From positions 1 to 36,528 of the forward strand of contig JAHKKL010000001.1 of assembly GCA_020027635.1 (NCBI GenBank): a DNA stretch of 36,528 nucleotides, given 5' to 3'. Each line of letters opens with the position of its first letter. Position 1 is the first letter of the stretch. The stretch is from Gammaproteobacteria bacterium (GTDB lineage Bacteria; Pseudomonadota; Gammaproteobacteria; UBA9214). Both the position numbers and the translations under genes were made by a program. This document shows, piece after piece, positions 4,245-36,528 of this stretch. The notes under the pieces are model-generated. The model ran no database searches. It worked only from the letters and a program-made list of their open reading frames with translations, and was not told the DNA's origin.

Positions 4245-4292
4245 CGTCTTTCTCCTCGTTCAGCCAGTCGCCAATCGACTGACTATGGATAC

Positions 4293-4320: not shown

Positions 4321-4330
4321 ATAGGACAAA

Positions 4331-4531: not shown

Positions 4532-4718
4532 CTGGGCTGATCCCGCAGTCGGCCTGCTCGACGAAGAACACCACCCCGCCATCCCACCAGAGGGTGCGCT
4601 CCACGTCGCGCCCATCTCGCTGCAGGCCGGGGCGGGAGCGGATCTCGTACCAGGTATGCGGGGGCACCACCAGGTCATTGGCAAATACAGCTGCATGCTG
4701 TCGGTAGACCGAGGTCAT
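4521..4718 (-). CDS. hypothetical protein (65 aa)
   Basis: Protein-like composition. Its ATG overlaps the stop of the upstream 54-aa ORF (ATGA). Confidence 0.5.
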   Translation of the reverse strand: MTSVYRQHAAVFANDLVVPPHTWYEIRSRPGLQRDGRDVERTLWWDGGVVFFVEQADCGISPDDE

Positions 4719-4879
4719 GGCGTGGCCTCCTGCTCGGGCTCGCAGGCCGGCGCCATGGCCGCCTGCAGGGTCGTGGGCGCCTCCTGGCGCTGGCAGTGCA
4801 TGGGATGGGCGATGCCCGGATCGGTGGGCGTCCCAGCGCCGATCAGGGCTGCGGCGAAGATCTGAATGAATGTCTGCAT
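4715..4879 (-). CDS. hypothetical protein (54 aa; not in ORF track because <60 aa)
   Basis: Hand translation gives MQTFIQIFAAALIGAGTPTDPGIAHPMHCQRQEAPTTLQAAMAPACEPEQEATP. GGAG lies 7 nt upstream of ATG 4879. The stop overlaps the next ATG (ATGA). The hydrophobic N-terminus looks signal-like. Confidence 0.4.
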   Translation of the reverse strand: MQTFIQIFAAALIGAGTPTDPGIAHPMHCQRQEAPTTLQAAMAPACEPEQEATP

Positions 4880-4909
4880 GGTTGACTCCTACATGATCGC
4901 ACCCTCTAT

Positions 4910-5164
4910 CTAATATAGGTTTGTGCGCTGCAACGGCAGCGCCCCTGGCTCGACCGGCTCACTATCCAGAGACTGGCAATACCGGTACGCCGGCCCGCCG
5001 CGATACACGCGCGAGTCGATGTTTTTGAAAAAGTCACGAGCGGCCAGCCCGGACCGAGATATTGCCGTGTACATGTACATCCAGTCCTGCGGCCGCTCCA
5101 GGGTGCCAGCGGCAATGGCGCGCTCGAACGCGTGGGTGGAATCGACAAAGGTCAGTGTGCTCAT
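4910..5164 (-). CDS. hypothetical protein (84 aa)
   Basis: GGGAG lies 6 nt upstream of ATG 5164. Globular-looking composition. First gene of the minus-strand small-gene block. Confidence 0.6.
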   Translation of the reverse strand: MSTLTFVDSTHAFERAIAAGTLERPQDWMYMYTAISRSGLAARDFFKNIDSRVYRGGPAYRYCQSLDSEPVEPGALPLQRTNLY

Positions 5165-5185
5165 GGTGTGCTCCCATCGAAATGT

Positions 5186-5213
5186 ACTGTAGTCGATGCA
5201 GACACCGTGCCAA
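5186..5213 (-). promoter_or_regulatory. sigma70-like promoter candidate for the minus-strand small-gene block
   Basis: The minus strand reads TTGGCA-N16-TACAGT (-35 at 5208-5213, -10 at 5186-5191), about 20 nt upstream of ATG 5164. Same architecture as the 4293-4320 candidate. Confidence 0.35.
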
Positions 5214-5265
5214 CGCCAGGGCTATCAGAAACACAACACGATTCAGTAAGTGAGTACTAACAATC

Positions 5266-5293
5266 CTGACAAATCTCGGCACATCGCTGACAA
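5266..5293. repeat. direct repeat CTGACAA x2, 21 bp apart
   Basis: CTGACAA at 5266-5272 and 5287-5293, in an AT-richer part of the intergenic region. A nearby palindrome GTGAC-N7-GTCAC lies at 5308-5324. Confidence 0.6.
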
Positions 5294-5569
5294 TCAACGG
5301 CAGGAAAGTGACAGAGAGCGTCACATCACACAAGGAATGGAATAAGTGAGGTAAGGTATATGAAAAAACGGTATAGAGTATCGGACAAGCTAGTTTGCAA
5401 CTATACATAACCCCCTGAAACATAACGAACGAACCGACAGAAGGTACTTGACGAATTCTGCGATGGAGTGCGATAGAGGGGGTAGGGGGAGTGAATAGAT
5501 GTGTCCCTGCTGTACCCAGGTCCAGTACCCCATCCAGCCATGCTCCCGAGTCACACCCTGTCCGTACTG

Positions 5570-5598
5570 GACCGAGAGTGACCGAGCGATGGACCGAG
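5570..5598. repeat. iteron-like GACCGAG x3
   Basis: GACCGAG starts at 5570, 5580 and 5592, a spacing of 10 and 12 bp (about one helical turn). Confidence 0.7.
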
Positions 5599-5644
5599 TG
5601 GGGTTGGGAGTGGGCTGGGGAGTGGGCTGGGGAGTGTACGGGGA
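5597..5644 (+). repeat. tandem 12-nt G-rich repeat (AGTGGGSTGGGG), about 4 units
   Basis: Units at 5597-5608 (AGTGGGGTTGGG), 5609-5620 and 5621-5632 (both AGTGGGCTGGGG, identical), and 5633 onward (degenerate). Eight G-runs of 3 or more lie between 5600 and 5649. Confidence 0.85.
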
Positions 5645-5776
5645 TGGGGTTGTCAGCCTCCTCCCCCATCCTGCACTGCAGCAATCCAGTCCAATCCCAT
5701 GGTCCCCTGGTCTTGATCAGGTCTGATCCTGAGTCAGGTACGGTTCCCACTCCAGAGTCAGAGACGAGCCTAAGTC

Positions 5777-5808
5777 ATTGATTGGATTGGGATTGGGACT
5801 GGACCTGG
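5777..5808 (+). repeat. short tandem (G)ATTGG/GACTGG/ACCTGG repeat
   Basis: The sequence reads ATTG ATTGG ATTGG GATTGG GACTGG ACCTGG. It is followed by further G-tracts (GGGATGGGTGGGTTGG at 5823-5838). Confidence 0.7.
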
Positions 5809-5981
5809 TGAGCGAGTGCAGCGGGATGGGTGGGTTGGTTTCCATGGGTCGAGGGTGAGCTGGATGGGGTCTACCATCAGCCCGATACCACCCAAAATTT
5901 CCGCAGTTGAGTCGAGTTCGAGGTACACACCGGTCATGGTCGGGCTTTTGGTGATAGCCATGCATGGGCTAGACTCGATGC

Positions 5982-18768: not shown

Positions 18769-19872
18769 ATGGGCGTCAATCAAATCGGTGCAGGCATCAA
18801 GTCCACGGCGCGGCCGGCCATCACGGTCGATCTGCAGAGCGGACAGGGCTACACGGTCCCGAGCGGCCAGTACATGGTCAGCCCCGGCAAATACACATTT
18901 ATCCAGTACTTCGATCCGGTCCTCTACACCTGGCGCAAGCTGGGCGCCGGCGCGCTGCCACAGTCCGTGATCCTGTCCTCGGACGGGACCAACTATCGGC
19001 TATACAACCCGACCGGCACGGTCGTGGCGGCCATCGTGACCAACGGTGGCACCGCGGACACGACCCTGAACGGGGTCTGGCTGGCCAAAAATGTGACCTC
19101 GACCACCCCATCCGCGAAGGTCACCAGCACGCGCACGGTGTTCAACGTGATTATCGGCGGCGCAGTCTCGACCACGGTCACAGTGGCGACGGCCGGCAGT
19201 GGCTACACGGTGGCGCCGATCGTGACCTTCTCGGCCCCGCCGCAGGGCGGCATGCAGGCGACCGGCTATGCCACGATCTCCTCGGGTGCGGTGACGAGTG
19301 TCACGGTCACCAACCAGGGCGGCGGTTATTCCAGCGCCCCGACCGTGACGCTGACGAACGCCAATGGAGACACGACTGGTAGCGGCGCGACGGCAACCGC
19401 GGCGCTGGACACGACGGTGTCGGGCAAGGTCGTGGGGCTGACCTGCACCGAATCCGCGACCGGCCTGACCTCGGTTCCGACGATTACCTTCAGCAATTGC
19501 CCGGCGAGCGCTGCCGCCACGGCCATCATGTGCCTGACCGCGACCACGGTGCCGAACCAGGCATCGACGCAGATGGGCAATGGCAGTGTCGGCCTGATGA
19601 TGAGCGCGGTGACTGCCGGCTCCTCGATCACGACCAACCCGCTGTACGAGACCGGTGTGTTTACCCCGCGCCTTGGCTATACAGCATGGTCGGCAGTGGC
19701 CTCGGGCGCAACGACGATCGTCGATGGCGGCCTGCACCAGATCGTCTCGGCCACCAATACCTCCAATGTGGTCTATGCCATTCTGCCGACAGGGACCACG
19801 CCGGGCGCAGCCACCCCGGCGGCCTGCACCTATTCGTCCACGAACGATCGCAGCATCCTGCTGCCGCTATGA
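18769..19872 (+). CDS. virion surface/decoration-type structural protein with GxGY(T/S)xAPxV(T/S) repeat modules
   Basis: 367 aa with AAGGAG RBS, directly after the capsid gene. It contains AGSGYTVAPIVTFS and QGGGYSSAPTVTLT modules and long Thr/Ser/Ala/Gly tracts. Confidence 0.55.
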   Translation: MGVNQIGAGIKSTARPAITVDLQSGQGYTVPSGQYMVSPGKYTFIQYFDPVLYTWRKLGAGALPQSVILSSDGTNYRLYNPTGTVVAAIVTNGGTADTTLNGVWLAKNVTSTTPSAKVTSTRTVFNVIIGGAVSTTVTVATAGSGYTVAPIVTFSAPPQGGMQATGYATISSGAVTSVTVTNQGGGYSSAPTVTLTNANGDTTGSGATATAALDTTVSGKVVGLTCTESATGLTSVPTITFSNCPASAAATAIMCLTATTVPNQASTQMGNGSVGLMMSAVTAGSSITTNPLYETGVFTPRLGYTAWSAVASGATTIVDGGLHQIVSATNTSNVVYAILPTGTTPGAATPAACTYSSTNDRSILLPL

Positions 19873-20213: not shown

Positions 20214-21062
20214 ATGGCCGTCACCCTGACAGATTACCTCGATCGCGAGCGCCAGCTACTCCACGACGTTGACGGCGATTACTACACTGACGATCAGTTG
20301 ACGAGCTGGACCAATATCGCCCGACGCCGGGTGGTGGGCGACACCGGCTGCAATCGTCAGCTTCAGCTCGGATACCTTCAGGCAGATCAGGAAACCTTCA
20401 CCTACGGGGCACTGACCGGCGTCGGCGTGACCGATGGCGGCAGCGGCTATTCTGACAGCTTCGCGGTAACCTTCAGTGGCGGTGGCGGTAGCGGGGCGGC
20501 GGCCACGGCCACGGCCACGAGCGGGGTCATCCAGTCGATCACGCTGACGAATTTCGGCACCGGCTACACCAGCGCCCCGACCCCCGTTCTGAGTGCCGGG
20601 GGCGGGTCGAGCGGGACCGCCACCGCCGGCATACTGAACCTGAACACACTGGATGTGATCAATGTCACGATCATCTGGGGCACGACCCGGATCGTGATGG
20701 GTTACATGAGCTTCACCCAGTTCAATGCCTACATGCGGGCATGGACGAATTTCCAGCAGCGCCCGGCCGTGTTCACGACCTACGGACAGAGCACGCTGTA
20801 CCTGGGCAGCATCCCGGATCAGACCTACGCGAGCGAGATTGACACCGTGGTGATCCCGGATGATCTCTCCTCCGGCAGCCAGACCGACACACTCATCTAC
20901 CCGTATACCGATTCAGTGCCCTATTACGCCGCTTCGCTCGCCAAGGAGTACCAGCAGCAGTGGGAGGAAAGCGAGGTATTCCTGCAGAAGTACAAGCAGC
21001 GAGTGAACCAGGCCCTGCAGTCGATTGCCACGCGCCGGATCGTCAGCGCCTATGGCAACTAA
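20214..21062 (+). CDS. virion structural protein (connector/adaptor candidate) carrying the same GxGY module
   Basis: 282 aa. GGSGYSDSFAVTFS ... TSGVIQSITLTNFGTGYTSAPTPVLS parallels SSGAVTSVTVTNQGGGYSSAPTVTLT in the 18769-19872 product. Confidence 0.5.
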   Translation: MAVTLTDYLDRERQLLHDVDGDYYTDDQLTSWTNIARRRVVGDTGCNRQLQLGYLQADQETFTYGALTGVGVTDGGSGYSDSFAVTFSGGGGSGAAATATATSGVIQSITLTNFGTGYTSAPTPVLSAGGGSSGTATAGILNLNTLDVINVTIIWGTTRIVMGYMSFTQFNAYMRAWTNFQQRPAVFTTYGQSTLYLGSIPDQTYASEIDTVVIPDDLSSGSQTDTLIYPYTDSVPYYAASLAKEYQQQWEESEVFLQKYKQRVNQALQSIATRRIVSAYGN

Positions 21063-24944: not shown

Positions 24945-26396
24945 ATGGCCCTCGATCTCTCCCCGATTGGTGTTCAGGATCCGATGCAGGCGGTAATGGG
25001 CAATGCCCAGACCCTGCAGGGTCTGCAGGGCGAGCGCCAGCAGATCCTGGACGCAAAGAAGACCGCCCGGCAGCAGTTCATGGGCGAGCTCGATCAGGTG
25101 CGGGCCGAGAAACCGAAGATGCCAGAGTTTCAGGAGCCGGGCGAGTTCAAGCCCAGCCGGCAGGTGATGGACAATTTCGGGATGGCGAGTTCCATCTTCC
25201 TCGCGCTCGCACTTCTGGGCGGCGCCGGCACGCGCCGGCCGATGACCACGGCGATGAACAGCTTCGCCGGTTTCATGAAGGGCTGGGCGAGCGGCAACCA
25301 GGCGCTCTGGGATCGGGAATACAAGCAATACAAGCTCAATCTCGACGCGGCGATGCAGAAGAACCAGCAGATGCTGGCCCGTTATCAGGCGACGATGGAC
25401 GATCACAAGTTGAGCCTGCAACAGAAGATGGACGAATGGAACATGACGGCGGCCGAGTATCAGGACGATCTGGGCGAACAGGCCATTCGCTCTGGCGACG
25501 CGAAGTTTTTCATGGACATGAATTTCAAGCGCGCGGATGCGATGCAGCGCGCCCAGCAGGCCGCCGCTCAGATCGGCGCCACCTATGCCGGACTGGCAGA
25601 GAGTCGGCGCTATCACGATCAGCAGCTGGCAATCCAGCAGTCGCGCGCAAATGAGAAGAAAGGGATCCTGGTGACTGACGAGCAGGGAAGACTCGTCAAT
25701 GTCGATCCAAATACCGGACAACCGATCGCCGATCTGGGCAAATACAAGCTTGCTGGTAAATCCAGCGCCGGACCGATTGGCGGGAATCTTGTTATCAGCG
25801 GATTCAACCTGACCGACAATCAGGCAAACAGGATCCTGGATTCCGAAAATCGGCGTACCTATCAGGAACTCAAGCCAATCTCTGAATTCGAGGAGAACCT
25901 TGGCAAGCTCGCAAACGTGATCCAGAACCCCAGCACGATGGACAAGAACCTGGCCCAGCAGGTGCTGGCGAACCTGCAAGCCATCAAGGGCGCGCGTAAT
26001 ACCAATCTCTTGTTCGGGAAAGCTGGAGAATTCGGTGATGTCGTAGACCGCGCCATTCAATGGTCCAAAGGAATGGTGCTCGGCGGCGAGATGACGGACG
26101 TGAATCGTCAGCATCTTCAGGATTTGGTTACCGGTCTTCAGAATGCGCCGGCAATGGCTCGCGAGAAGATCATTGCTGATGCCGTATTGCGCGCAAGAGC
26201 GCGTGGCGTGAATGCCAACAATGATATGTTGGCCTCTACCAATCCATGGTCTGGCGTGACCTATTCCGTTACTGGATCCACGAATGTCGAGCAATATCGT
26301 GGCATGAGTCCGGAAGAGATCGTTCGAGCCATCCCGGATGATGCAGAGGCAGAGGCTGTTCTGCGCGAGTTGTATCCAGATCAATTCAGCGACTGA
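24945..26396 (+). CDS. internal virion/ejection-type protein (candidate)
   Basis: 483 aa, Gln/Ala/Met-rich and helical, with a central hydrophobic segment (MASSIFLALALLGGAG). Confidence 0.45.
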   Translation: MALDLSPIGVQDPMQAVMGNAQTLQGLQGERQQILDAKKTARQQFMGELDQVRAEKPKMPEFQEPGEFKPSRQVMDNFGMASSIFLALALLGGAGTRRPMTTAMNSFAGFMKGWASGNQALWDREYKQYKLNLDAAMQKNQQMLARYQATMDDHKLSLQQKMDEWNMTAAEYQDDLGEQAIRSGDAKFFMDMNFKRADAMQRAQQAAAQIGATYAGLAESRRYHDQQLAIQQSRANEKKGILVTDEQGRLVNVDPNTGQPIADLGKYKLAGKSSAGPIGGNLVISGFNLTDNQANRILDSENRRTYQELKPISEFEENLGKLANVIQNPSTMDKNLAQQVLANLQAIKGARNTNLLFGKAGEFGDVVDRAIQWSKGMVLGGEMTDVNRQHLQDLVTGLQNAPAMAREKIIADAVLRARARGVNANNDMLASTNPWSGVTYSVTGSTNVEQYRGMSPEEIVRAIPDDAEAEAVLRELYPDQFSD

Positions 26397-26397
26397 C

Positions 26398-29025
26398 ATG
26401 CCTAGCGCCGCGGAGTTCGTCAAGCAGGTAAGGAGCGGCGCGCAGCCACCGCCAACTCCTGTGGCAGAGCCTGTTGATGCGTCACCTCAAATGCCACCAG
26501 CCGCCGAACCGGCAATTGCGCCAGCAGAACCAAAGATGACCTATCGGGAATTCGTCGATGCCAATAAAGGCAAACGATCTGAATACCTATGGGATCGAAT
26601 GAAAAATGATTGGGCGTCACTGACTGCGCTGCTGGCAGCCGGCGGAACGGGCGGTGGATTCAATGGCCTGGCGCCAGTATTGGATACATCACCTGGAGAG
26701 GTTCTTGCCTCGACACTGCCCCAAACAAGAGAGGCACTGAATGTACAGCAGATCCCGATGCCCAAAAACTACCAGGGCAGGGATGATGAGACGGCGCGCT
26801 TCCTCGGGCTGCTTGCCGATCAATTGGCAATGGCGCCGCTGACCGTACCGCTGGCGGTTGTCGGCGGCGGCGGAAGCCCGGCCCTCAGTACCGCCCTGGA
26901 AGCCATGAATATGGCTGGTGGCGCAGTAACCGGTTATGAGGGCGGGAAAATCGCTGAGAACATGGGCAAAGATCGCGATATCGGTGAGGCGATCGGCAGC
27001 CTTCTTGGTACCGGGCCAGCCTATCTTGCATCCAAACTCGCGAAGACAGGCGGGCGAGCCGCTGGAGGCGCCATCGACAAAATAGGGGGTTCTGAGAAAC
27101 AGGCCGGAGAACTTGCTCGCAGTCAGCTTGGTCGGGCCCTGGAAGCTGATCCAAAATCAGCGGCGAGGGCGGCTGAATCAAAAGCAATTGCAGACAAGAT
27201 CAATGCCGTTGCTGGAGAGGGCGAATTCAAGCCCACGCTTGCGCAGATGACTGGATCTCCGGGGGTAATTGCCATAGAGCATTCTGTATCTGCCGCATCA
27301 CCGGAGAACCTTGCGCGCAAGGCATCAATGACGACGGAAAGCGAACACGCCCTGCAGTCTGCTGGCAATCAGATGTTTCCGACCGAACCAGGGACCGTCA
27401 TGCAACAGGTAAAGAACGAGGCCGATCTATCGACGCAATTCTATCGTCAATCGGTGGAGAAATACCTGAAGGATCTTGGCGAACTTCGGTCCCGACTTGG
27501 TGGCCATGTCAATGAGGCCGCCGGTCAGAAAATGATCCAGTTGCGCGAGAAGTTTCTTGATGCCGCGCGCAAACAGGATAGCGATAATTACAAGCGCGTC
27601 TATCAGATCGCAAACGCAGAGGGCGTCAGGATCCCGGCCGCCATGATCTACCAGCAGGCACGCACCATCGCCGGACAGGACATCAATGCTTTCCAGACGC
27701 TGCCCAGTATCTGGAACAAACTGAAACAGTGGGCGCCAAAAGAAAGGGGCGAAGGGATCAATTGGGAGCGAGTCCAGCACGAGCCGGTGAGTTTCGAGGA
27801 ATTTCATTCTTTCTACAAGGAGCTGAATCGTTTGCTATTCGATCCTGGCACCAGCCAGGCTGAAAAATACCTGCTGGGTCAATTGAAAGAGCAATCCGGC
27901 AATATCCTTAGCCAGTTCGAGAAAGCCGGATCGCGGGCATCTAGTGCCTTTCGTCAGGCAAACGAGTTCCATAAGACAGAGATCGAAGATGTCTTTCGCA
28001 GCGGCATTGGATCGAAAATGGTGGCCGAAACACGCCATGGAGAGATCACGGCCGCCGAGGATCTGGTACGGAAGTTGATAGCAAAAAAGGGCGGGACGAC
28101 ACCAGTAACTCAATATCTTGCCATGTTCAAGGGCGATCCGGAAGCGATAAAAACACTCGAAGACGGCGCCTTCAGTATGTTTGTGCGCGATGTGATCAAC
28201 CCATCCAGGGGCGTGGTGGATGCCGGGAAGGTTAATCGATTCATGACCGACCATCAGGTTCTAATTGATTCGCTTCCTGGTCTGAAGGCCAAGATCATTG
28301 ACACCAAGATACGTGCCGATGCCCTGGTCGAACGGGCACAGGCAATCAAGGCATTCAAGCAGGAAATGGATCAGTCAGTTATCACCAAAATGGCCGGTGC
28401 CGGAACGGTTGATGATGCAATCGGTATTGTTCTTCGAGAACCAGCACGGATGGATGAATTCATCAAGACAATGGCGGCGAATCCGGACGCTAAGCGGGCT
28501 GTGCTGCGCGGCATTATGGGCAGGATCACGGAATCCAATGATCCAATGAAAATACTTGAGGCGTCCGGGCCTAACATCAAGAAACTGGCCAATTCACTTG
28601 ATCCGAAGGCATGGGAAAACCTGCTGGTTGTTGCGCAAGCCAAGACCATTCTACGTCGGGCGCCGACGCCTGAAACAGTCCATATCGAGACGGTTGTTGA
28701 TCCGTTGCTGAAGATGACGGGTACCGCAGCAACTGGATTTGTGAGCCGATTCATGACCAATCCGATCATGAGCCGGGCGCGCGCACTTGCTTCAGTGGTC
28801 AGCCGATATGGATTGATGAAGACTCAGCAGAAGGCAGACAAGCTATTGGCGGATGTGTTATATGAGCCAGAGAAGGCGGCTGGGTTCCTTGATACGATTG
28901 CCAGCGGCGGGAAGCCCATCCCGCGATCTGGATCATTTGCCTATCATGAGGGGGCGCATGTTGCGCGTTCGGTGTTGATGCAGATTGCCAACGTCCCGGA
29001 CGAGAACCAGGAAAACGTAGAATAA
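26398..29025 (+). CDS. large internal virion/ejection-type protein (candidate)
   Basis: 875 aa from ATG 26398, 1 nt after the previous stop. Largely helical. No lytic transglycosylase or peptidase motif seen by eye. Visibly lower G+C than the head genes. Confidence 0.45.
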   Translation: MPSAAEFVKQVRSGAQPPPTPVAEPVDASPQMPPAAEPAIAPAEPKMTYREFVDANKGKRSEYLWDRMKNDWASLTALLAAGGTGGGFNGLAPVLDTSPGEVLASTLPQTREALNVQQIPMPKNYQGRDDETARFLGLLADQLAMAPLTVPLAVVGGGGSPALSTALEAMNMAGGAVTGYEGGKIAENMGKDRDIGEAIGSLLGTGPAYLASKLAKTGGRAAGGAIDKIGGSEKQAGELARSQLGRALEADPKSAARAAESKAIADKINAVAGEGEFKPTLAQMTGSPGVIAIEHSVSAASPENLARKASMTTESEHALQSAGNQMFPTEPGTVMQQVKNEADLSTQFYRQSVEKYLKDLGELRSRLGGHVNEAAGQKMIQLREKFLDAARKQDSDNYKRVYQIANAEGVRIPAAMIYQQARTIAGQDINAFQTLPSIWNKLKQWAPKERGEGINWERVQHEPVSFEEFHSFYKELNRLLFDPGTSQAEKYLLGQLKEQSGNILSQFEKAGSRASSAFRQANEFHKTEIEDVFRSGIGSKMVAETRHGEITAAEDLVRKLIAKKGGTTPVTQYLAMFKGDPEAIKTLEDGAFSMFVRDVINPSRGVVDAGKVNRFMTDHQVLIDSLPGLKAKIIDTKIRADALVERAQAIKAFKQEMDQSVITKMAGAGTVDDAIGIVLREPARMDEFIKTMAANPDAKRAVLRGIMGRITESNDPMKILEASGPNIKKLANSLDPKAWENLLVVAQAKTILRRAPTPETVHIETVVDPLLKMTGTAATGFVSRFMTNPIMSRARALASVVSRYGLMKTQQKADKLLADVLYEPEKAAGFLDTIASGGKPIPRSGSFAYHEGAHVARSVLMQIANVPDENQENVE

Positions 29026-29525: not shown

Positions 29526-29715
29526 CGGCTCCCCCGAAGAAACCACGGCGACCACCCGCCAGCCGAACCCGCCCAGGGGTGGGCGGACAATGCCGAAGCT
29601 TGGATTTACCCCTCGATTCGACACCAGCGGGACCGGACTGAATGTGCGCTCGCCGAGCCCCGACAAGACGGACTGGCCCTGCCAGAAGAACCCGATCAAG
29701 GCCGACGATTACTGA
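29512..29715 (+). CDS. hypothetical Pro/Thr/Gly-rich protein (67 aa)
   Basis: Strong AGGAGG lies 7 nt upstream of the ATG. Disordered-looking. The 3' end overlaps the convergent AsnB-like gene by 7 nt. Confidence 0.5.
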   Translation: MKPINGSPEETTATTRQPNPPRGGRTMPKLGFTPRFDTSGTGLNVRSPSPDKTDWPCQKNPIKADDY

Positions 29716-31229
29716 GGTCTTTCCCCTTCGATCCAGACTCGGTGCCAGGCATTGAAGTAGGCCAGTGACCAGTTCAGTAGTCGGCGTCGGTTGCCGGTTG
29801 TGGCCATTGTCTGGATCCATGCGTCGTCGTTCAGATATGACCATACCGGATCGGCGCGATCGGGCGGAAACCACCAGGTATCATCTGTGCAAAATCCCTG
29901 CTTGGGCTTGGTCGCCAGATCCGGGACCAGCCCATCGATCTCCTCGCGCATCCAGTCCTTGCGCCCAGTGCGCAGCGAAAACGGGATCCGGATCGCCTGA
30001 TCGACAAAGGCATTGCTGAGGAACGGGACCCGCGCCTCCAGTGAATGGGCCATGCTCACCTTGTCTTCGATCACCAGTAACGAGTGCAGGAATGTCCGGG
30101 CCTCGAACTCCCAGTCATTGACCGTATCGGAATAAATGCTCCGCAGGCGTTCGAGGGCGACAGACTGGTTCAACACCGGCGGCAGGCGGGTCCAGATCTG
30201 AGCCCGATCCTTGCCGTAGCGCCAGGGGTAGCCCCCGAACAACTCATCCCCACCGGTACCGGCCATGACGACCCGGCCGAACCGCGAAGCAAGGGCGGCC
30301 GCATACCAGTTCGGGTAGGAGGGCCCAAGCCGGGGCTCCTCGAGGTGCCAGGCGAGAGACGGCAGGCAGTCGCGGGCCATCTGCGGCGTCACAATCGCCT
30401 CGTAATGCGCCGTATTGAGCGCGGCAGCCAGGGCCTCGGCATCCGCCCGCTCATCCCCGCCGGTGAAGCCCACGGAGAACGTGGTAAGCCCTGTGGGCAT
30501 GCGCTTGGCAATCATGGCCGAGTCCAGCCCGCCGGACAGGTAACAGCCCGGCGCAAAATCCCCGCGCAACTGGCTTTTGACGGCCTGCGTGAAATCCGGG
30601 ATCGCTTCCCCGCCGTCCAGAAAATTCCAGGACCAATACTCTCTCTGAACTATGTTCAGACTCTCATCGATGATCAGCGCCGTCCCCGGCCGGACCATGT
30701 GGACGCCCCTGAACAGGGTTGTCGCCGGATCGAGATAGTTCTGAAAGGTGAAGTATTCCTCCAGCGCCTCCTGATCGACATCGGCCCTGAATCTGGGGTG
30801 GGCCAGGAATGCCTTGATCTCGGAGGCGAACAGAAAGTCCCGTCCGATCCGCGTGTAGTAGAGGGGCTTGATCCCGTAGCGATCCCGTATCAGCATCAAC
30901 GTCCGGGACTCGTACTCGTAATGGGCAATCGCGAACATGCCGTCCCATTCCTCTCGCAAATGGTAGCCGCGCAAAATCCAGGACGCCTCGCTGACGCCCG
31001 CCGGACAGTTGTATATCTCGCCCGCCAGCGCCAGCATGCCGTAACCATCCGATACCGGTTGCGCATGATCTCCATTGATGGCCAGCCGCACATGCCCGAT
31101 ACAACAGCCATCCTTCTGCTGATATTGCAGATCATCGGGACCACGGTGATGGATCTTGTCCAGCATTTCGCGGACCAAGCGGCTCCTGTCCCCGCCAAAG
31201 GCGCTGAAGACGCCAGCTATCCCGCACAT
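29709..31229 (-). CDS. asparagine synthetase-family glutamine amidotransferase (AsnB-like)
   Basis: 506 aa. The N-terminal MCGIAG supplies the Cys2 nucleophile of class-II (Ntn) amidotransferases. SGGLDS is the PP-loop ATP pyrophosphatase motif. Confidence 0.85.
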   Translation of the reverse strand: MCGIAGVFSAFGGDRSRLVREMLDKIHHRGPDDLQYQQKDGCCIGHVRLAINGDHAQPVSDGYGMLALAGEIYNCPAGVSEASWILRGYHLREEWDGMFAIAHYEYESRTLMLIRDRYGIKPLYYTRIGRDFLFASEIKAFLAHPRFRADVDQEALEEYFTFQNYLDPATTLFRGVHMVRPGTALIIDESLNIVQREYWSWNFLDGGEAIPDFTQAVKSQLRGDFAPGCYLSGGLDSAMIAKRMPTGLTTFSVGFTGGDERADAEALAAALNTAHYEAIVTPQMARDCLPSLAWHLEEPRLGPSYPNWYAAALASRFGRVVMAGTGGDELFGGYPWRYGKDRAQIWTRLPPVLNQSVALERLRSIYSDTVNDWEFEARTFLHSLLVIEDKVSMAHSLEARVPFLSNAFVDQAIRIPFSLRTGRKDWMREEIDGLVPDLATKPKQGFCTDDTWWFPPDRADPVWSYLNDDAWIQTMATTGNRRRLLNWSLAYFNAWHRVWIEGERPQ

Positions 31230-32053
31230 CGCTGCAATCCCTGTTTCAGATCGATCTCCGCCGTCCAGCCCAGATCGGCGGTTGCCCAGCCCGGATCGCC
31301 GAGCATGTGGGTGATCTGGATCGGGCCATCGACGAACTCCGGCTGACCGATCATGGCCGCCAGATCCTTGATCTTCGTCCCGACTCCCGTACAGATGTTG
31401 TAGAACCCGTGCCCGTGCGTGAGCGCCATGCAGACGGCGCGCGCCGCATCATCGACATGGACGAAGTCGTAGGATTCGCTGCCGGAACCATAGACGGGCA
31501 GAGGTTTGCCCTCGCGCGCCAGACGCAGGAACTTCGGGATCACCGCTTCATAACCCTTCAGCACCGCGTTGCCGTACACGGACTGGAAACGCAGTCCGAC
31601 GAAGTCGAGCCCATGCTGCAATTGCAGGACATGTTCGGCCACGATCTTCAGTCGCGCATAGTCGGAGGTGCCGAACAATGGCGCAGTCTCGGAGATTGGG
31701 CCTGACTGTTCGCCATAGACACTGCCGGAGGAGGCATAGACGAGTTTGACCCGGTTGTAGGCGCAAAGCTCTGCAATAAATCGCAACAGATTGATCATTG
31801 TGTACCATGCCCATAACGGGCGCTGCGCACAGTCGAACACGGGCAATGCCGCAAGAAAGATGACGCCGGTAATGATGACGCCGGTAATATCGTCTTTTTC
31901 AGCAGCCTCAACAGATGGATAGATCTTCGTCCCCGCCGGCAAATTATCTGGACTTCCTCGACTCAGATCATCGACCACGATACATCGCTTGGGGCCCAGC
32001 CGTTTCACGACATGGCTGCCGATCAGCCCCGCCCCGCCAATGATCAGGATCAT
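31217..32053 (-). CDS. NAD-dependent sugar epimerase/dehydratase (extended SDR)
   Basis: Start moved to ATG 32053 (GAAGGAGGAGAG RBS). IIGGAGLIGSHV is a Rossmann GxxGxxG motif. YASSGSVYG and the catalytic YARLK (YxxxK) are present. Confidence 0.8.
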   Translation of the reverse strand: MILIIGGAGLIGSHVVKRLGPKRCIVVDDLSRGSPDNLPAGTKIYPSVEAAEKDDITGVIITGVIFLAALPVFDCAQRPLWAWYTMINLLRFIAELCAYNRVKLVYASSGSVYGEQSGPISETAPLFGTSDYARLKIVAEHVLQLQHGLDFVGLRFQSVYGNAVLKGYEAVIPKFLRLAREGKPLPVYGSGSESYDFVHVDDAARAVCMALTHGHGFYNICTGVGTKIKDLAAMIGQPEFVDGPIQITHMLGDPGWATADLGWTAEIDLKQGLQRCAG

Positions 32054-32265
32054 CTCTCCTCCTTCTTGCCGAATTTGAGCTTCAGATAATTGCCGCGCTG
32101 GCCGACATTGCGCCAGCCGGAAATGAACAGCTCGTCCGTATTCCCGCACGCCTCGCAGACATGATTCCCAGAACCGATATAGTCGGGCTGGCGATCCTCG
32201 CGCTTGGCCTTGTTCGGGAACAGGATCCCGGTATCGGGCAGATATTCGCGCTTTTCCTCCGTCAT
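32050..32265 (-). CDS. small hypothetical protein (71 aa), pattern reminiscent of DUF736-type proteins
   Basis: GILFPNKAKREDRQPDYIGS ... ISGWRNVGQRGNYLKLKF resembles the (N.K....PDY.G ... W.K....G..YLSLK) pattern. ATGA overlaps at both ends. The assignment is tentative. Confidence 0.4.
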   Translation of the reverse strand: MTEEKREYLPDTGILFPNKAKREDRQPDYIGSGNHVCEACGNTDELFISGWRNVGQRGNYLKLKFGKKEER

Positions 32266-32666
32266 AGTGGCCGGGCCGGGTTGCCGATCACCTTCGCGCC
32301 GCGCTCGATATCAGCGGTCACGACCGCCCCGGCGCCAATCAGCGCACCCTCGCCGATCATCACCCCGGCGACGATCACCGCCCCGGCACCGATACTGACC
32401 TTGTCTCGAACGGTGGTATGCCAGATGTGGTCCGATGGCGGGTACCGATCATTGGTGAAGGTCACCGATGGCCCAATGAAACAGTCATCGCCGATCGTCA
32501 CCCCGGAAGGGATATAGGCGCCCGCCTGGATCTTGCAGCGATGACCGATCTTCACATCATGACCGATCCAGACGTGGGAATGAATGACGCACTCATCCCC
32601 GCAGACGAACTCCAGCAGGATAGATAGGTGTGGATGCCAGATCCGGGTATTGCGCCCGATCTTCAT
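32262..32666 (-). CDS. hexapeptide-repeat (left-handed beta-helix) sugar acyl/acetyltransferase
   Basis: 134 aa with repeated [LIV]G..... hexads (IGHDVKIGHRCKIQAGAYIPSGVTIGDDCFIGPSVTF ... IGAGAVIVAGVMIGEGALIGAGAVV). TFTNDRYP is as found in amino-sugar N-acetyltransferases. Confidence 0.8.
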   Translation of the reverse strand: MKIGRNTRIWHPHLSILLEFVCGDECVIHSHVWIGHDVKIGHRCKIQAGAYIPSGVTIGDDCFIGPSVTFTNDRYPPSDHIWHTTVRDKVSIGAGAVIVAGVMIGEGALIGAGAVVTADIERGAKVIGNPARPL

Positions 32667-33511
32667 GTCAGTGCCCCCTTCATGTCTTCCAGTCCATCAC
32701 GGAACCCGAACGCTGCCTTGAACCCAAGCATACGTTCGGCCTTGCTGCAGTCGAAAAAGAACCTGTCCGGATCCACCGTGCGCTGCTCGCGCATGGCAAT
32801 CTGGCCACGGTAACCGAACACATCGCAGATTATCTCCGCCGCCTTCTGGGTCGTGATCTCCTCGCCGGTGCCGATGTTGTAGATCTGATTCCATGCATCA
32901 TGCGGGGCATTGAGCGCCAGCACGTTGGCGTTCGCCACGTCCTTGATGTAGCAGAAGTCATTGCTCTGCTTGCCGCCATACAGGGTCGGTTGCAGATCAT
33001 GGGCGATCCGATCAAGAAATCCCCCAACCAGGCCGTGGTGGCGCTTTTCGTTACCATACAGGTGCGCGTAACGGAGCACTATCCATGGTGTGCGCATGCG
33101 CCGCACGTACAGCTCGCCCGCATACTTGCTACAGCCATAGACCGAATTCCCGCAGGCCTTGAACTCCTCGGTGATCGGTGGCGTTGCCTCGATTGGCATG
33201 TAGACCGAGCCGGTCGATGCATAGACCAGTGGCACGCAGTATCGCTCGGCAAGCATCGCAACGTTGCGGGTACCGAGTACATTGATCTCGATACAGCGCA
33301 TCGGATCGGCGTCGGCTTCGGCAAAGCGGGCAATCGCCGCTAGATGCAGGATCCGGGAATTCGGGCCCAGCCGCTGGATCGCCTTCTCCAGTTTCGTCTC
33401 GTCACGGATATCGTCCCCATCCATGATATCGAATGTGACCCAGGACGCGTCCAGATACTTCATTGTCGCCGCGCCGACGAACCCATGCGCACCCGTGATC
33501 AAGCAGCTCAT
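32663..33511 (-). CDS. NAD-dependent sugar epimerase/dehydratase (extended SDR)
   Basis: 282 aa. ITGAHGFVGA, YASTGSVY, the catalytic YGCSK (YxxxK), and RYAHLYG. Confidence 0.8.
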   Translation of the reverse strand: MSCLITGAHGFVGAATMKYLDASWVTFDIMDGDDIRDETKLEKAIQRLGPNSRILHLAAIARFAEADADPMRCIEINVLGTRNVAMLAERYCVPLVYASTGSVYMPIEATPPITEEFKACGNSVYGCSKYAGELYVRRMRTPWIVLRYAHLYGNEKRHHGLVGGFLDRIAHDLQPTLYGGKQSNDFCYIKDVANANVLALNAPHDAWNQIYNIGTGEEITTQKAAEIICDVFGYRGQIAMREQRTVDPDRFFFDCSKAERMLGFKAAFGFRDGLEDMKGALT

Positions 33512-34110
33512 CGCATTCCTCCTCCGAAGATTGGCATTTCTCGCAGATCAGGATAGTCCTCGGATCCGCCCTGATCGGGCAGATCGGGCGGCAGCGCCTC
33601 CAGCAGTTGCAGCCCCCTGGCCGCCTGCTCAGGCGTCATGTAGCAGTTCCAGCCCAGCATATCGACCTTGTCATCCATGAACGGGATCTCGGGATGCCGG
33701 CCGTCGTAACGGGCACGCCGGAACCAATCCCGCGCCACTGAACTGGATGTCAGTATCATCCCGCCGCGACCAATCGGCAGCAGCTTGCGCGCATGGAAAC
33801 TCAAGCAATGCAAACCGCGATCATACATATTCCTGCGCATTCGTCTGGCGCCGTCAAAGATGTTGTAGCCGAACCAATAACCGCCGCTCCAGTCGTGATC
33901 ATGGAACTCTGGCTTCAGCCCAGCATGAAGAACCGCCATCGGGACCGAGATATAGGTGTGCGCCGGCAACGTCACCATTCTGGGCTGTGCATAGGCTAGA
34001 CATAACCTGATCGCGCTCGTGCATGAATCGACGGCCACCGCATATCGGGCGCCGGAGAACGTAGCGACCGCCTGCTCGAATGCATCGACAACATCCCATG
34101 CTCTACTCAT
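33508..34110 (-). CDS. minimal DegT/DnrJ/EryC1/StrS-type PLP sugar aminotransferase (200 aa)
   Basis: AFEQAVATFSGARYAVAVDSCTSAIRLCL matches the family's N-terminal pattern. LSFHARKLLPIGRGGMILT matches SF..K....GEGG, which contains the PLP Lys. It is only about half the usual length. Confidence 0.65.
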   Translation of the reverse strand: MSRAWDVVDAFEQAVATFSGARYAVAVDSCTSAIRLCLAYAQPRMVTLPAHTYISVPMAVLHAGLKPEFHDHDWSGGYWFGYNIFDGARRMRRNMYDRGLHCLSFHARKLLPIGRGGMILTSSSVARDWFRRARYDGRHPEIPFMDDKVDMLGWNCYMTPEQAARGLQLLEALPPDLPDQGGSEDYPDLREMPIFGGGMR

Positions 34111-34939
34111 TTGTTTGCTGCTGTGTTAGCGCCCATTGCGGGCACACATCCCGGACCGGGCAATACTCGGCACACCGACGGTAGACGCCAGTGCGTTTCT
34201 GGATGCTGTCGCCCTTGTTCGCGGCCATCCACGCCTGCGCCTCCTCCTTGGTGTCGAGGACGCGCAAGGCAGATTTCCGGCCCTTCTGCATGACCGCCCA
34301 GGTACCGTCCTGATACCAGCGTTCCTCATCCGTGCAAGAGACAACAGTGTCCGTGAAATGCGCGGCCATACGATCTTCGATATAGAACGCCCGTTCGGGC
34401 TGCGGCCATAGCGGGATCTTGACGATGGCCACGTTGTGCGCCGGATAGCCATTGATCCCACCCTTCGATTTCTGCCAGTCGCGCAGCAGGGCAACGATCT
34501 GCAGCGCGCCGATCGGATATCCATTGCGCTCGCACAGCTCGGCCAGCACATTCAACTGCAGGCTCCATTCCGGCTTGCCGTAGATGACCGACCAGACGGA
34601 GGCCACCTTGTAGTCACTCAACAGCCCGCCATCGAGTACCAGATGATCGAATTTTCCGCTCAGCACCTTGTCACCGATAGTTGCATACAGGCGCTTTTCC
34701 TGCATCGCAGAGGACTGCGCGCGCTCCAGCACGGTATGCACGGATTGCCCGAACAGGGACCAGATCCGTTCACTGACATCCTCGGTCAGTTCATCGCCAT
34801 GCGCCTCCAGCAGGCGCCTGATCTGGACCGGTCCGATCAGGGTCGTGACCGAGATATCGGCCTCCCCGCGCGAATAATCGTCATTGGCGACCGCATTGAC
34901 GAGCGCATCGGGGAGGCCGAGTTTGTTGGTCAGCTTCAT
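34103..34939 (-). CDS. PD-(D/E)XK nuclease, Cas4/RecB-like phage exonuclease
   Basis: 278 aa. GKFDHL...LSDYKV supplies the D...D-x-K core. QLNVLAEL is Q-motif-like. C-terminal Cys cluster (C-x48-C-x3-C-x5-C; RRCAEYCPVRDVCPQW). Confidence 0.7.
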   Translation of the reverse strand: MKLTNKLGLPDALVNAVANDDYSRGEADISVTTLIGPVQIRRLLEAHGDELTEDVSERIWSLFGQSVHTVLERAQSSAMQEKRLYATIGDKVLSGKFDHLVLDGGLLSDYKVASVWSVIYGKPEWSLQLNVLAELCERNGYPIGALQIVALLRDWQKSKGGINGYPAHNVAIVKIPLWPQPERAFYIEDRMAAHFTDTVVSCTDEERWYQDGTWAVMQKGRKSALRVLDTKEEAQAWMAANKGDSIQKRTGVYRRCAEYCPVRDVCPQWALTQQQTNE

Positions 34940-35346
34940 CAGAACGGAAAATCGTCGTCGAAGGCAGCGTCCTTGGGCGTGGTAGCCGGCGGCGCTGGTA
35001 CCTTCTTGATCCGAAGTCCGCCAGTTATCTTGCCGGCGAAGCCCACGCTCGGATCGGCGAACACGACGATCTGCTTGCCGCGGGCCTGCGCCGGGCTGGC
35101 GGCGCCGGTGGCCATCTTCAGCAACTCCTTGTTGGTGATGTTCAGCACCATCGGCCTGAACTCCCGCTCTACAAAGTAGAGAACCGTCTTTTCCTCCTCC
35201 TTGCCATCGGCCTCCAACATCTCGCGTTTGAACCCGCGAATGGTCAGGATGACCCCATCCTCACCGACATCTTCCTTTTTCAAATATTTGCTCTCGGATG
35301 GGACCAGTGCGTCCCAACTGGTATTCGGATCGATTGGTTGACTCAT
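34939..35346 (-). CDS. ssDNA-binding-type protein with SSB-like acidic C-terminal tip
   Basis: 135 aa from ATG 35346 (GAGGAG RBS). It ends in FDDDFPF, mimicking the bacterial SSB C-terminal DDDIPF interaction tip. Adjacent to the nuclease. A longer form starting at 35430 is possible. Confidence 0.5.
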   Translation of the reverse strand: MSQPIDPNTSWDALVPSESKYLKKEDVGEDGVILTIRGFKREMLEADGKEEEKTVLYFVEREFRPMVLNITNKELLKMATGAASPAQARGKQIVVFADPSVGFAGKITGGLRIKKVPAPPATTPKDAAFDDDFPF

Positions 35347-35407
35347 TTTCCTGCTCCTCTCATAGTGTTCACGTTCGCTTGCCTGCGCCTGCTCCCAGCC
35401 CGGCCTT

Positions 35408-35611
35408 TCATCCTCTAGCCAGGCGTCCATCTTCGCTCCCGTAGCCGAGGCCATGCTCCTCATGCCACACTGCGTTACGGATAGCCTCACGGTGCCCCTC
35501 CAATAGCGGCAGCAGATCCTGGCTGCAGTCCCGCGGCTCCACGTAGCGCAGCCGGCCCTCATCGATACACACGTCCAGATCCACGCCCAGATAACGAATG
35601 GTGGTAATCAT
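35408..35611 (-). CDS. hypothetical protein (67 aa)
   Basis: ATG 35611 with GGAGG 8 nt upstream, 2 nt after the glycosyltransferase stop. The upstream part of track ORF 35408-35977 is Arg-rich and overlaps the GT gene, so it was discarded. Confidence 0.45.
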   Translation of the reverse strand: MITTIRYLGVDLDVCIDEGRLRYVEPRDCSQDLLPLLEGHREAIRNAVWHEEHGLGYGSEDGRLARG

Positions 35612-35613
35612 TG

Positions 35614-36528
35614 CTAGGCCTCCAGGAATTTGGTGAATATGTCGAGTTGTGTCTGCGTGGTCTCGTGCCCACGATGATACCGACGCATCCATGCCTGCGA
35701 GTCGAGACCGATCTGCGTCAGCTCGCCCCGGCTGGCGCCGTAGTACCTGCCGATCTTCCCTACGATGTCTGCCTCGGTACCGATGTTGATGACTGGCGGC
35801 AGCTCGTCGTACAGCCCGGTGTAATGTGCCGGATCCAGGTAGGTCATCACCGGCGCGCCGCAGGCCATCGCCTTGTAGGTGACGCCCCCGTTCGCCCCGA
35901 GCGCGAACTGATCGGCCACCAGATCGGCCGTCAGACACATCCGGTAATAGGCTTGCCCAGGCAGCGGCGGGAACCATTTCACATACTGACAGACGCCTGC
36001 CGCCTTGAGGTACTGCCGGGACTCCTGCACATCATGCCCCCATTCGCAACAGATGAGCCCCACCCTGATCCCTGCCCGGCGCAGGGTCGAGAACGCAGAT
36101 AGCAGCACCTGATTGCCCTTGTCCATGTAGGAATAGGCAGGGGTCCAGTCATGCCGGGTGGGCCAGAAGATCAGGAGATCGGCGTCCAGTTCGCGCAGCA
36201 ACTGTTCGCGCAACAATCGATCAGGTTCGGCGGTCAGCGGATGGAATTCGTCGTAGGGGTGATTGATGAACGTCGTTGTCAGCGCCCCGTCTGCCTGTTT
36301 CCCCGCCTGCTGTAATTGTACCCCCTTGGCCAGATTGTCCGGGTTGGTGACGAAGACATGCTCGGCCAGCGCATAGGCGAGCCCGCACAGCCGCCCTGCC
36401 TTGTGTTGCTGCCACGGCAGATCGCGCAGCGTGCCATGCTCCATCGCGAAGAACGGCACCCCGGCCACCAACGGAATGAACACACCGGCACCATAGCCGA
36501 TCACGATATCGTATTGCTGGCAGAACGC
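35614..36528 (-). CDS. GT-B fold glycosyltransferase (GT4-like), 5'-truncated by window edge
   Basis: GGVTYKAMACGAPVMTY resembles the GT4 E..EAMA.G.PV motif. The frame stays open from 36504 to the window end (AFCQQYDIV...), so the gene probably starts beyond 36528. Confidence 0.65.
   Translation of the reverse strand, partial: AFCQQYDIVIGYGAGVFIPLVAGVPFFAMEHGTLRDLPWQQHKAGRLCGLAYALAEHVFVTNPDNLAKGVQLQQAGKQADGALTTTFINHPYDEFHPLTAEPDRLLREQLLRELDADLLIFWPTRHDWTPAYSYMDKGNQVLLSAFSTLRRAGIRVGLICCEWGHDVQESRQYLKAAGVCQYVKWFPPLPGQAYYRMCLTADLVADQFALGANGGVTYKAMACGAPVMTYLDPAHYTGLYDELPPVINIGTEADIVGKIGRYYGASRGELTQIGLDSQAWMRRYHRGHETTQTQLDIFTKFLEA

Follow-up and report, generated by a model that had tools for sequence, protein, structure and literature searches.

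Virus-encoded routes to rare amino sugars have been described in giant viruses: Mimivirus uses the 4,6-dehydratase R141, the aminotransferase L136 and the N-acetyltransferase L142 to make UDP-Vio4NAc for its fibril glycans, and Moumouvirus encodes a bacillosamine route through Ma467, Ma465 and Ma466 (PMC9614988). For mycobacteriophages, Freeman et al. (2023) are reported to have described C-terminal glycans on capsid and tail-tube subunits (PMC12619734; also PMC11256854). Here we set these systems beside a group of sugar-enzyme genes on a phage contig of 36,528 nt (JAHKKL010000001.1, assembly GCA_020027635.1, Gammaproteobacteria bacterium). This stretch, referred to below as the window, is the entire deposited contig, and the sequence 5′ of the glycosyltransferase (GT) gene that heads the group lies off it. 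Bacterial routes to 2,3-diacetamido-2,3-dideoxy-hexuronic acids and their uronamides (WbpA/B/E/D/I, WlbA-D), which include AsnB-type amidotransferases such as WbpS, offer a further point of comparison. To our knowledge, phage-encoded glycosylation has been little characterized beyond T-even DNA glucosylation, mycobacteriophage virions and giant viruses.

We propose that the phage encodes, in this region, most of what a glycosylation unit of its own requires, in the form of two mobile viral cassettes and a transferase, with a virion protein as the favored acceptor, and we place the probability of this reading at roughly 0.5. As in the giant-virus pathways, a virus-encoded short-chain dehydrogenase/reductase (SDR), a pyridoxal phosphate (PLP) aminotransferase, an acetyltransferase and GTs would together serve a rare bacterial-type N-acetyl amino sugar, and the aminotransferase family found here also occurs on contigs of giant-virus metagenome-assembled genomes (MAGs). 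However, the aminotransferases of giant viruses have the full length of 352-384 aa and work with a proven 4,6-dehydratase, whereas here a 200-aa aminotransferase without the C-terminal domain is accompanied by an SDR without dehydratase residues, and an AsnB-like enzyme is added. The resemblance to mycobacteriophages is that phage GTs reportedly modify capsid and tail-tube proteins, and relatives of the present locus place the cassettes and extra GTs beside capsid genes. Unlike the mycobacteriophages described there, this phage also encodes sugar-nucleotide tailoring enzymes, and glycosylation of its virions is a prediction.

Results

Gene Content and Recurrence of the Cassettes

Ten genes in one orientation span positions 29709-36528 of the minus strand, with sugar enzymes alternating with exonuclease and single-strand DNA-binding protein (SSB)-like genes. 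In reading order, they are:

35614..36528, minus strand: GT-B (GT4-like) glycosyltransferase, C-terminal ~304 aa, assigned via homologues with PF00534/PF13692
35408..35611, minus strand: orf67, an open reading frame (ORF) of 67 aa, recognized as an ORF only
34939..35346, minus strand: 135-aa SSB-like protein with the acidic C-terminal tip FDDDFPF, assigned from the tip motif and weak fold matches
34103..34939, minus strand: PD-(D/E)XK phage exonuclease, 278 aa (phrog_2139 "exonuclease", 1.3e-41)
33508..34110, minus strand: mini DegT-type PLP sugar aminotransferase (mini-DegT), 200 aa, cassette A (PF01041 DegT_DnrJ_EryC1, 4.5e-20)
32663..33511, minus strand: SDR1, a 282-aa extended SDR, cassette A (PF01370, 6.7e-35; PF04321, 4.6e-23)
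32262..32666, minus strand: 134-aa left-handed beta-helix N-acetyltransferase of the hexapeptide type (QdtC/FdtD/WlbB-like), cassette A (PF00132, 3e-23)
32050..32265, minus strand: orf71, a 71-aa ORF with a CxxC motif, between cassettes A and B
31217..32053, minus strand: SDR2, a 278-aa NDP-sugar 4-epimerase-like SDR, cassette B (PF01370, 8e-34)
29709..31229, minus strand: AsnB-like glutamine-dependent amidotransferase, 506 aa, cassette B (PF00733 Asn_synthase, 1.5e-51, plus GATase_6/7)

Judged by the recurrence of their homologues, the sugar genes fall into two viral cassettes, both of them mobile. Cassette A (mini-DegT, SDR1 and the hexapeptide acetyltransferase) recurs in otherwise unrelated phage contigs at 53-71% identity, and cassette B (SDR2 and the AsnB-like amidotransferase) at 47-50% identity. 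SDR1 homologues 53-71% identical adjoin a mini-DegT in six of our numbered loci (L065, L066, L068, L082, L093 and L103), and homologues of the hexapeptide transferase (55-62% identical) are present in L065, L066, L068, L071, L103 and L153. The particular partners seen in the window, SDR1 and the hexapeptide transferase, are confined to the closest mini-DegT clade (L065, L066/L067, L068, L093 and L103), with partial versions of cassette A in L071 and L082. The closest AsnB homologues (47-48% identical, 428-451 aa) also lie on phage contigs, and in L151-L154 the gene immediately before the AsnB homologue encodes an SDR 47-50% identical to SDR2. When IMG/VR was scanned for close relatives of AsnB, none was found. 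The original prediction, made from the sequence alone, had asked whether this gene order recurs in related phages: the two cassettes do recur, but no other gene of the window was found on the cassette A contigs. Gene content, intact catalytic motifs, cassette mobility and viral distribution are read directly from the data.

The surroundings of the cassettes in related contigs were as follows:

L065 and L068 (SU10-portal type): cassette A with two GTs and a methyltransferase, between the region of a 336-aa capsid gene and tail genes
L093: cassette A between a rhamnosyl-transferase-like gene and a tape-measure-like gene
L153: SDR, AsnB, hexapeptide transferase (61% identical) and a GFO oxidoreductase, with a P22-type coat gene on one side and a Phage_stabilise gene on the other
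L151: SDR and AsnB, then an MptE/Maf-like (PF01973) gene and, two genes on, a faint SU10_adaptor match
L103: cassette A beside a PAPS-reductase-like gene, a DNA methyltransferase (~3.3 kb away) and a terminase
L066: cassette A in a temperate phage with an integrase
Flavobacterium phage immuto (cultured): a related island, located after a PD-(D/E)XK nuclease, with GTs, WecE and a mini-WecE as well as a methyltransferase, an acetyltransferase and an epimerase

In most related contigs, then, the cassettes lie among capsid, adaptor or tail genes and not among replication genes. Because the same cassettes are found elsewhere between capsid and adaptor/tail genes, it is this phage (and in part L103) that is peculiar in having them within a DNA-metabolism operon, which is no property of the cassettes. 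The PF01973 protein of L151 (positions 3833-5287, 484 aa) directly follows the SDR-AsnB pair; this family also takes in the Maf flagellin glycosyltransferases.

Origin of the Sugar Genes

All ten ORFs were recovered in the predicted order and position, and the predicted junction overlaps of 1-13 nt agreed exactly with the ORF coordinates. The SSB-like and exonuclease genes overlap by 1 nt (34939), the exonuclease and mini-DegT genes by 8 nt (34103-34110) and the SDR2 and AsnB genes by 13 nt (31217-31229), while 4-nt overlaps of the ATGA type join mini-DegT to SDR1, SDR1 to the hexapeptide transferase, the latter to orf71, and orf71 to SDR2. The last of these presumes an internal ATG at 32053, as the longest SDR2 ORF begins with GTG at 32149. 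Gaps of 2 nt and 61 nt separate the GT gene from orf67 and orf67 from the SSB-like gene, respectively. A search of the minus strand within the gene chain revealed no sigma-70-like promoter.

An assembly artefact or host flank, that is, phage DNA fused with a host O-antigen locus, or host genes adjacent to a prophage, might be suspected from the GT, as its nearest relatives stand in loci of bacterial type, including one in a Planctomycetaceae MAG. We consider this explanation very improbable. The sugar genes have a GC content of 0.58-0.61 and a GC at third codon positions (GC3) of 0.67-0.78, both within the range of the contig's structural genes, and their tetranucleotide correlations (r 0.81-0.91) equal the values among structural segments, so that by GC, GC3 and tetranucleotide usage they are indistinguishable from the structural module. 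For five of the six sugar enzymes, the nearest homologues are on phage contigs. Since the genes are interleaved with the exonuclease and SSB-like genes through overlaps of 1-13 nt and match the structural module in composition, the sugar region is neither host flank nor chimera. The earlier claim that these are phage genes in one overlapping chain with the exonuclease and SSB-like genes, and not host flank, is therefore upheld by overlaps, interleaving, composition and phage-contig relatives alike.

A chimeric assembly was rejected because of the interleaved genes and the matching composition. We likewise rejected a genome that is circular or complete, with the N-terminus of the GT wrapping around to the start of the window, as there is no terminal overlap. 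A blastn search of the region against 50,697 phage records gave no match.

As a separate observation, mini-DegT genes occur on two ~40.5-kb contigs of one Planctomycetota MAG and on one Planctomycetaceae contig (L162, L164 and L165), and the GT homologue P0004 comes from a Planctomycetaceae MAG. These occurrences possibly hint at a host lineage, or may be phage contigs that were mis-binned.

The Short DegT-Type Aminotransferase

The mini-DegT is the most interesting element of the region, being widespread and apparently uncharacterized; a literature search on the mini-DegT cassette, viral perosamine and phage DegT found no characterization. The Lys of its SFHARK sequence aligns with the PLP Lys of the perosamine synthase 3bn1 (S-x-x-x-x-K motif). 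This residue (K109) and D86 are invariant in 20 homologues, and from its position D86 would be the Asp that pairs with the PLP ring nitrogen. Its nearest relatives are perosamine synthase, ArnB, PseC and DesI, which are C-4 enzymes. The AlphaFold2 (AF2) model (pLDDT 84.7) has its best fold matches in GDP-perosamine synthase (3dr7/3bn1) and ArnB, with Foldseek TM-scores normalized to the target of 0.37-0.40 and ~38% of those structures covered. The two-domain architecture of DegT enzymes (~360-400 aa) is absent, with matches restricted to regions ~26-94 and ~174-250 of the family profile and the matched chain. We identified 2542 database clusters of this family (E <= 1e-3); the best 120 of them are all 180-234 aa long and 54-65% identical, and many lie on contigs of 20-50 kb. 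Because the homologues are equally short, the PLP Lys and Asp are invariant and the fold match is partial, the mini-DegT is a real short form that consists of the large domain only, without a C-terminal domain, and is not a fragment.

At least 540 confirmed mini-DegT stretches were found in IMG/VR, including contigs of giant-virus MAGs, compared with 39 loci, mostly on MAG contigs, in 185,579 species genomes; this comparison is rough, as slightly different search patterns were used. The family thus appears to be large and mostly viral, spanning phages and giant-virus MAGs. In 50 of 86 mini-DegT loci, a true GDP-mannose 4,6-dehydratase (GMD; PF16363, 9e-110) is encoded directly downstream, and recurrent neighbors across the 86 include GT10, GT11, hexapeptide and GNAT acetyltransferases, a sulfotransferase, UDP-GlcNAc 2-epimerase and NeuB. 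The neighborhood is a glycan-building context, and the frequent pairing with GMD among the IMG/VR loci that carry a mini-DegT (L071-L150) suggests a widespread viral route of the GDP-perosamine type. The GDP-perosamine pathway itself (GMD, the perosamine synthase Per and an N-acetyltransferase) resembles these loci in two respects: the Caulobacter GDP-perosamine synthase (3bn1/3dr7) is the best sequence and fold match of the mini-DegT, and GMD directly follows the mini-DegT in the 50 viral loci. The clade of the window differs in having SDR1, which lacks the dehydratase Glu, at the GMD position.

The Remaining Sugar Enzymes

Both SDRs have intact GxxGxxG and YxxxK motifs. The best PDB matches of SDR1 (motifs TGAHGFVG, YASTGSVYM and YGCSK) are UDP-Glc and UDP-GlcNAc 4-epimerases. 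Those of SDR2 (YASSGSVYG and YARLK) are the UDP-GlcNAc or UDP-GlcA 4-epimerases 6wjb/6wj9, 6dnt, MoeE5 6kv9 and 6zl6, and PelX-type UDP-GlcNAc epimerases and UDP-GlcA 4-epimerases are nearest to it. The 4,6-dehydratase signature is S/T-S-E in GMD and T-D-E in RmlB (STDEVYG). The Glu/Asp beside the catalytic Ser/Thr is absent from SDR1 (STGSVYM), in which no Glu follows the catalytic Thr, and from SDR2 (SSGSVYG), while a viral GMD in the same alignment reads ASSSEMFG. NCBIfam dehydratase models score both proteins far below their cut-offs, and the GalE equivalog TIGR01179 gives 78-87 bits against a cut-off of 262; indeed, NCBIfam yields an equivalog-level assignment for no enzyme of the region. 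Neither SDR is therefore a 4,6-dehydratase of the canonical kind, and SDR1 looks more like an epimerase or a reductase; its identity as a divergent GMD or RmlB dehydratase was rejected on the active-site motif. The dehydratase step of the original prediction does not survive this analysis, as both SDRs lack the acid/base residues and their best PDB relatives are 4-epimerases.

The hexapeptide transferase matches 7s43 (1.3e-28), 4mzu (8e-27), WlbB 3mqg (7e-21) and QdtC 3fs8 (1e-19). It is small, without the N-terminal domain of the PglD/PerB class, and by sequence belongs to the QdtC/FdtD/WlbB class. Its nearest solved relatives (7s43, FdtD, WlbB and QdtC) acetylate C-3 amines. The AsnB-like protein has both domains (PF13537/PF13522 and PF00733) and retains the N-terminal MCGIAG with its Cys nucleophile and the SGGLDS PP-loop; it matches phrog_16728 at 1.4e-74, and its TIGR01536 score is 266.1 against a cut-off of 267.1. 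At the family level, the predicted roles are borne out for the aminotransferase, the N-acetyltransferase, the amidotransferase and the GT. Of the classic amino-deoxyhexose route that had been proposed, the aminotransferase and acetyltransferase stand at that level, but the dehydratase does not.

The Glycosyltransferase and the DNA-Metabolism Genes

The GT frame is open through the last base, 36528, and the fragment aligns to residues ~216-502 of the 511-aa homologue P0001; therefore, ~215 N-terminal residues lie off the contig end. No match to the N-terminus was found when it was sought across the whole window. The fragment itself has no direct Pfam match and no significant PDB sequence match. 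The predicted GT-B class therefore cannot be read from the fragment alone, but it is reached through homologues 31-46% identical that carry PF00534. Twelve homologues were found, the closer ones 435-531 aa long and 31-46% identical; those of 489-531 aa carry PF00534 Glycos_transf_1, several with PF00534/PF13692. They stand in bacterial-type polysaccharide loci (L063 and L064). In L063, the homologue is accompanied by AsnB, a UDP-sugar dehydrogenase, a GFO oxidoreductase, DegT and a hexapeptide transferase (41% identical). Exact-protein look-ups of the GT homologue P0007 and of the exonuclease returned no record. At 35850-35900 (minus strand), the GT of the window reads YKAMACG at the usual site of the second Glu of the GT4 EX7E motif (LEAMA).

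The SSB-like protein belongs to a family of 1836 representatives with the consensus C-terminus DDDIPF. Its profile has no significant match in PDB sequences or Pfam. The AF2 model (pLDDT 79.9) matches uncharacterized phage proteins in BFVD (9e-12) and, weakly, DUF669 (6e-4) and phage "SSB" models (~1e-2); in a PDB fold search nothing was significant, with OB folds only at E~0.2. The earlier "SSB-tail" label draws its support from the conserved DDDIPF-like C-terminus and from weak fold matches to DUF669 and phage SSB models.

The exonuclease is possibly Cas4-like, with a putative C-terminal Cys cluster (CAEYCPVRDVC). Homologues 35-47% identical are present at 62 IMG/VR loci that share no other gene with the window, and these loci are therefore uninformative on the sugar genes. 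No Pfam, PHROG or NCBIfam match was found for orf67. The sole match of orf71 is a weak one (2.6e-5) to phrog_18154, "single strand DNA binding protein". The related cassettes in which orf71 was sought do not have it, and it is therefore a separate insertion.

Other Genes of the Contig

Elsewhere, the window encodes a large terminase, a portal, a major head protein (phrog_9953, 8e-24), two Ig-like repeat proteins and a GH108 endolysin. Features of this part include:

18769-19872 and 20214-21062, plus strand: two Ig-like proteins directly after the major head gene, with repeated "GGxGY...aPtVT" modules and 21-27% Ser+Thr
229-783, plus strand: GH108 lysozyme with PG_binding_3 (7.7e-20 and 1.8e-08), likely the endolysin
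2514-3422, plus strand: trypsin-family (S1) serine protease, 302 aa, with a hydrophobic N-terminal segment (PF00089, 2.6e-52)

The Ig-like proteins match repeat domains of many PHROGs virion proteins and are candidate decoration proteins and candidate glycan acceptors. The S1 protease, an unusual phage cargo, is encoded downstream of the GH108 endolysin, within the lysis region. Another ORF (1-225) begins at the first base of the contig and may be truncated. Upstream of the terminase, ~1.1 kb (~4870-5980) has no convincing gene and a lower GC content (0.546); it could hold regulatory or packaging signals. The last gene of the structural arm (26338-29025, plus strand) encodes 895 aa and has a GC3 of 0.58, compared with 0.67-0.84 in all other genes; the protein has no family match, and an IMG/VR scan for close relatives found none.

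Discussion

We infer the order of reactions, the identity of the sugar (an acetamido-deoxy-hexose or hexuronamide) and the acceptor from the gene content described above. Cassette A would start from a nucleotide sugar of the host, or from the keto form of that sugar, and yield the nucleotide of an N-acetylated amino sugar. The fact that SDR1 occupies the slot of GMD directly after the mini-DegT suggests that it supplies or reshapes the keto sugar. In cassette B, SDR2 would epimerize a nucleotide sugar, and the AsnB-like enzyme would most plausibly use glutamine and ATP to amidate a uronic-acid carboxylate, giving a uronamide. The uronamide role is proposed because homologues of the GT, AsnB and acetyltransferase co-occur in L063, whose gene set matches a route to 2,3-diacetamido-uronic acids by analogy. 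The GT-B enzyme would then move the finished sugar onto its acceptor in the cytoplasm. Co-transcription with the exonuclease and SSB-like genes would, in this scheme, only mean that the sugar nucleotide pool precedes assembly.

The bacterial diacetamido-uronic acid routes are close in several respects: the hexapeptide transferase matches WlbB 3mqg and QdtC, L063 pairs homologues of the GT, AsnB and the hexapeptide transferase with WbpA-, WbpB- and WbpE-like genes, and L153 joins the same acetyltransferase and AsnB with a GFO-type oxidoreductase. In contrast to those routes, the window has neither a UDP-sugar 6-dehydrogenase nor a GFO-type 3-oxidase, and SDR1 and the mini-DegT, whose nearest folds are C-4 enzymes, stand in place of WbpB and WbpE.

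A virion structural protein, for example one of the Ig-like proteins, rich in Ser/Thr/Gly, whose genes come after that of the major head protein, is the acceptor that we favor, although only tentatively and at somewhat less than even odds. We favor it because related cassettes are located in late structural modules, because a Maf-like gene lies beside cassette B in L151, because giant viruses and mycobacteriophages provide precedents, and because the mini-DegT neighborhood is one of glycan building. The original prediction held that sequence does not decide the acceptor, and this is still correct.

Several points weigh against the glycosylation unit as we have described it. On the chemical side, no UDP-sugar 6-dehydrogenase is present in the window to supply a uronic acid, and neither SDR is recognizable as a dehydratase or as a C-3/C-4 oxidase, which leaves the source of the keto sugar unexplained. 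The regiochemistry is also mismatched, the relatives of the acetyltransferase acting at C-3 and those of the aminotransferase at C-4. The virion acceptor is one that we infer, with no glycosylation site motif known for this phage. In the window, DNA-metabolism genes belong to the same operon as the cassettes, and the cassette A copy of L103 has a DNA methyltransferase and a PAPS-reductase-like gene nearby. The head-tail junction at which other contigs hold the cassettes can simply be a common insertion site for accessory genes. Finally, the GT homologue P0001 has a weak match to MshA in NCBIfam, and phage DNA glycosyltransferases of the GT-B fold can resemble MshA and PglH (bioRxiv 10.1101/2023.12.21.572611).

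That the only homologues of the GT stand in bacterial-type polysaccharide loci (L063 and L064), and that O-antigen routes of the WbpABDE/WlbA-D type, with an added amidotransferase, have a similar set of enzymes, raises the alternative that the host envelope is remodeled. The GT would add the sugar to an undecaprenyl-linked O-antigen, capsule or exopolysaccharide intermediate, excluding other phages or keeping progeny off debris. Such a function is commonly proposed for genes of this kind in cyanophage genome papers (PMC12801897), and one relative of cassette A belongs to the temperate phage of L066, with its integrase. Nevertheless, neither the window nor the related cassettes contain a flippase, polymerase, initiating phosphoglycosyl transferase or Gtr-type membrane protein, and most related contigs hold the cassettes inside late structural modules. 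Members of the mini-DegT family are also present in MAGs of giant viruses, which are reported to glycosylate their own particles with virus-encoded sugar pathways (PMC9614988). We regard envelope remodeling as unlikely, though second only to a virion acceptor.

The operon shared with the exonuclease and SSB-like gene had been taken as a pointer to a DNA acceptor. Its force as such a pointer is weakened by L065, L068, L093, L151 and L153, in which the cassettes lie between capsid and adaptor/tail genes. DNA hypermodification would have the GT place an amino or uronamide sugar on a hydroxylated or hydroxymethylated base as protection against restriction or CRISPR, with the base-modifying genes upstream, past the contig end. 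The contig is indeed cut inside the GT, with the upstream genes off it, cassette A of L103 is ~3.3 kb from a DNA methyltransferase, and the related island of immuto follows a PD-(D/E)XK nuclease. Like known DNA hypermodification clusters (T4 alpha/beta-GT; RB69/DLP3 arabinosyl-5hoC; 5mYOX/C5-methyltransferase (C5-MT) with GT and epimerase), the region has a GT and an SDR epimerase among DNA-metabolism genes, and adducts of N-acetylhexosamine (HexNAc) and hexuronic acid (HexA) are known there: phage clusters of GT and epimerase place HexNAc and hexuronic acid on 5-hydroxymethylcytosine (5hmC) (bioRxiv 10.1101/2023.12.21.572611). Unlike them, the 36.5 kb analyzed here lacks the defining base-activating enzyme (a ThyS homologue, or 5mYOX with C5-MT). 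Scans found no ThyS homologue, 5mYOX/TET, C5-MT or kinase, confirming, for a contig cut just upstream of the GT, the earlier statement that no base-hydroxylating or DNA-modifying gene is visible. Moreover, the known DNA-glycosylation clusters that we compared use simple sugars and few helper enzymes, mostly a single epimerase; none has a five-enzyme amino-sugar route, and an amino-sugar and amidation route is not reported for DNA in that literature. The same cassettes lie elsewhere among capsid and tail genes, and mini-DegT neighborhoods are rich in GT10/GT11 and in sulfo-, methyl- and acetyl-transferases, as is typical of oligosaccharide assembly. We consider a DNA acceptor unlikely but not negligible, and rank it below the virion and the envelope.

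Returning to the virion as acceptor, a broader proposal can be made, which we put forward as a doubtful possibility: the mini-DegT may be a virus-specialized minimal aminotransferase in a mobile module with swappable partners, through which giant viruses and many phages of aquatic habitats would decorate their virions with uronamides or rare N-acyl amino sugars. It would work without the canonical C-terminal domain, possibly in complex with the adjacent SDR, and its partner would be GMD in most lineages and SDR1 here.

Phage glycosylation touches on host range, on immune recognition of therapeutic phages and on resistance to host defenses. The locus described here yields two compact, horizontally mobile viral cassettes that are apparently uncharacterized, one of them with an aminotransferase of about half the usual size from a mostly viral family. 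If the product went onto DNA instead of the virion, no sugar adduct of DNA known so far would be as elaborate. If virions are decorated, virion glycosylation would extend to environmental podovirus-like phages, and the cassettes would provide minimal enzymes for making rare amino sugars. If, in addition, the mini-DegT is specialized for viruses as outlined above, virion glycosylation would be a widespread phage trait and not a peculiarity of mycobacteriophages.

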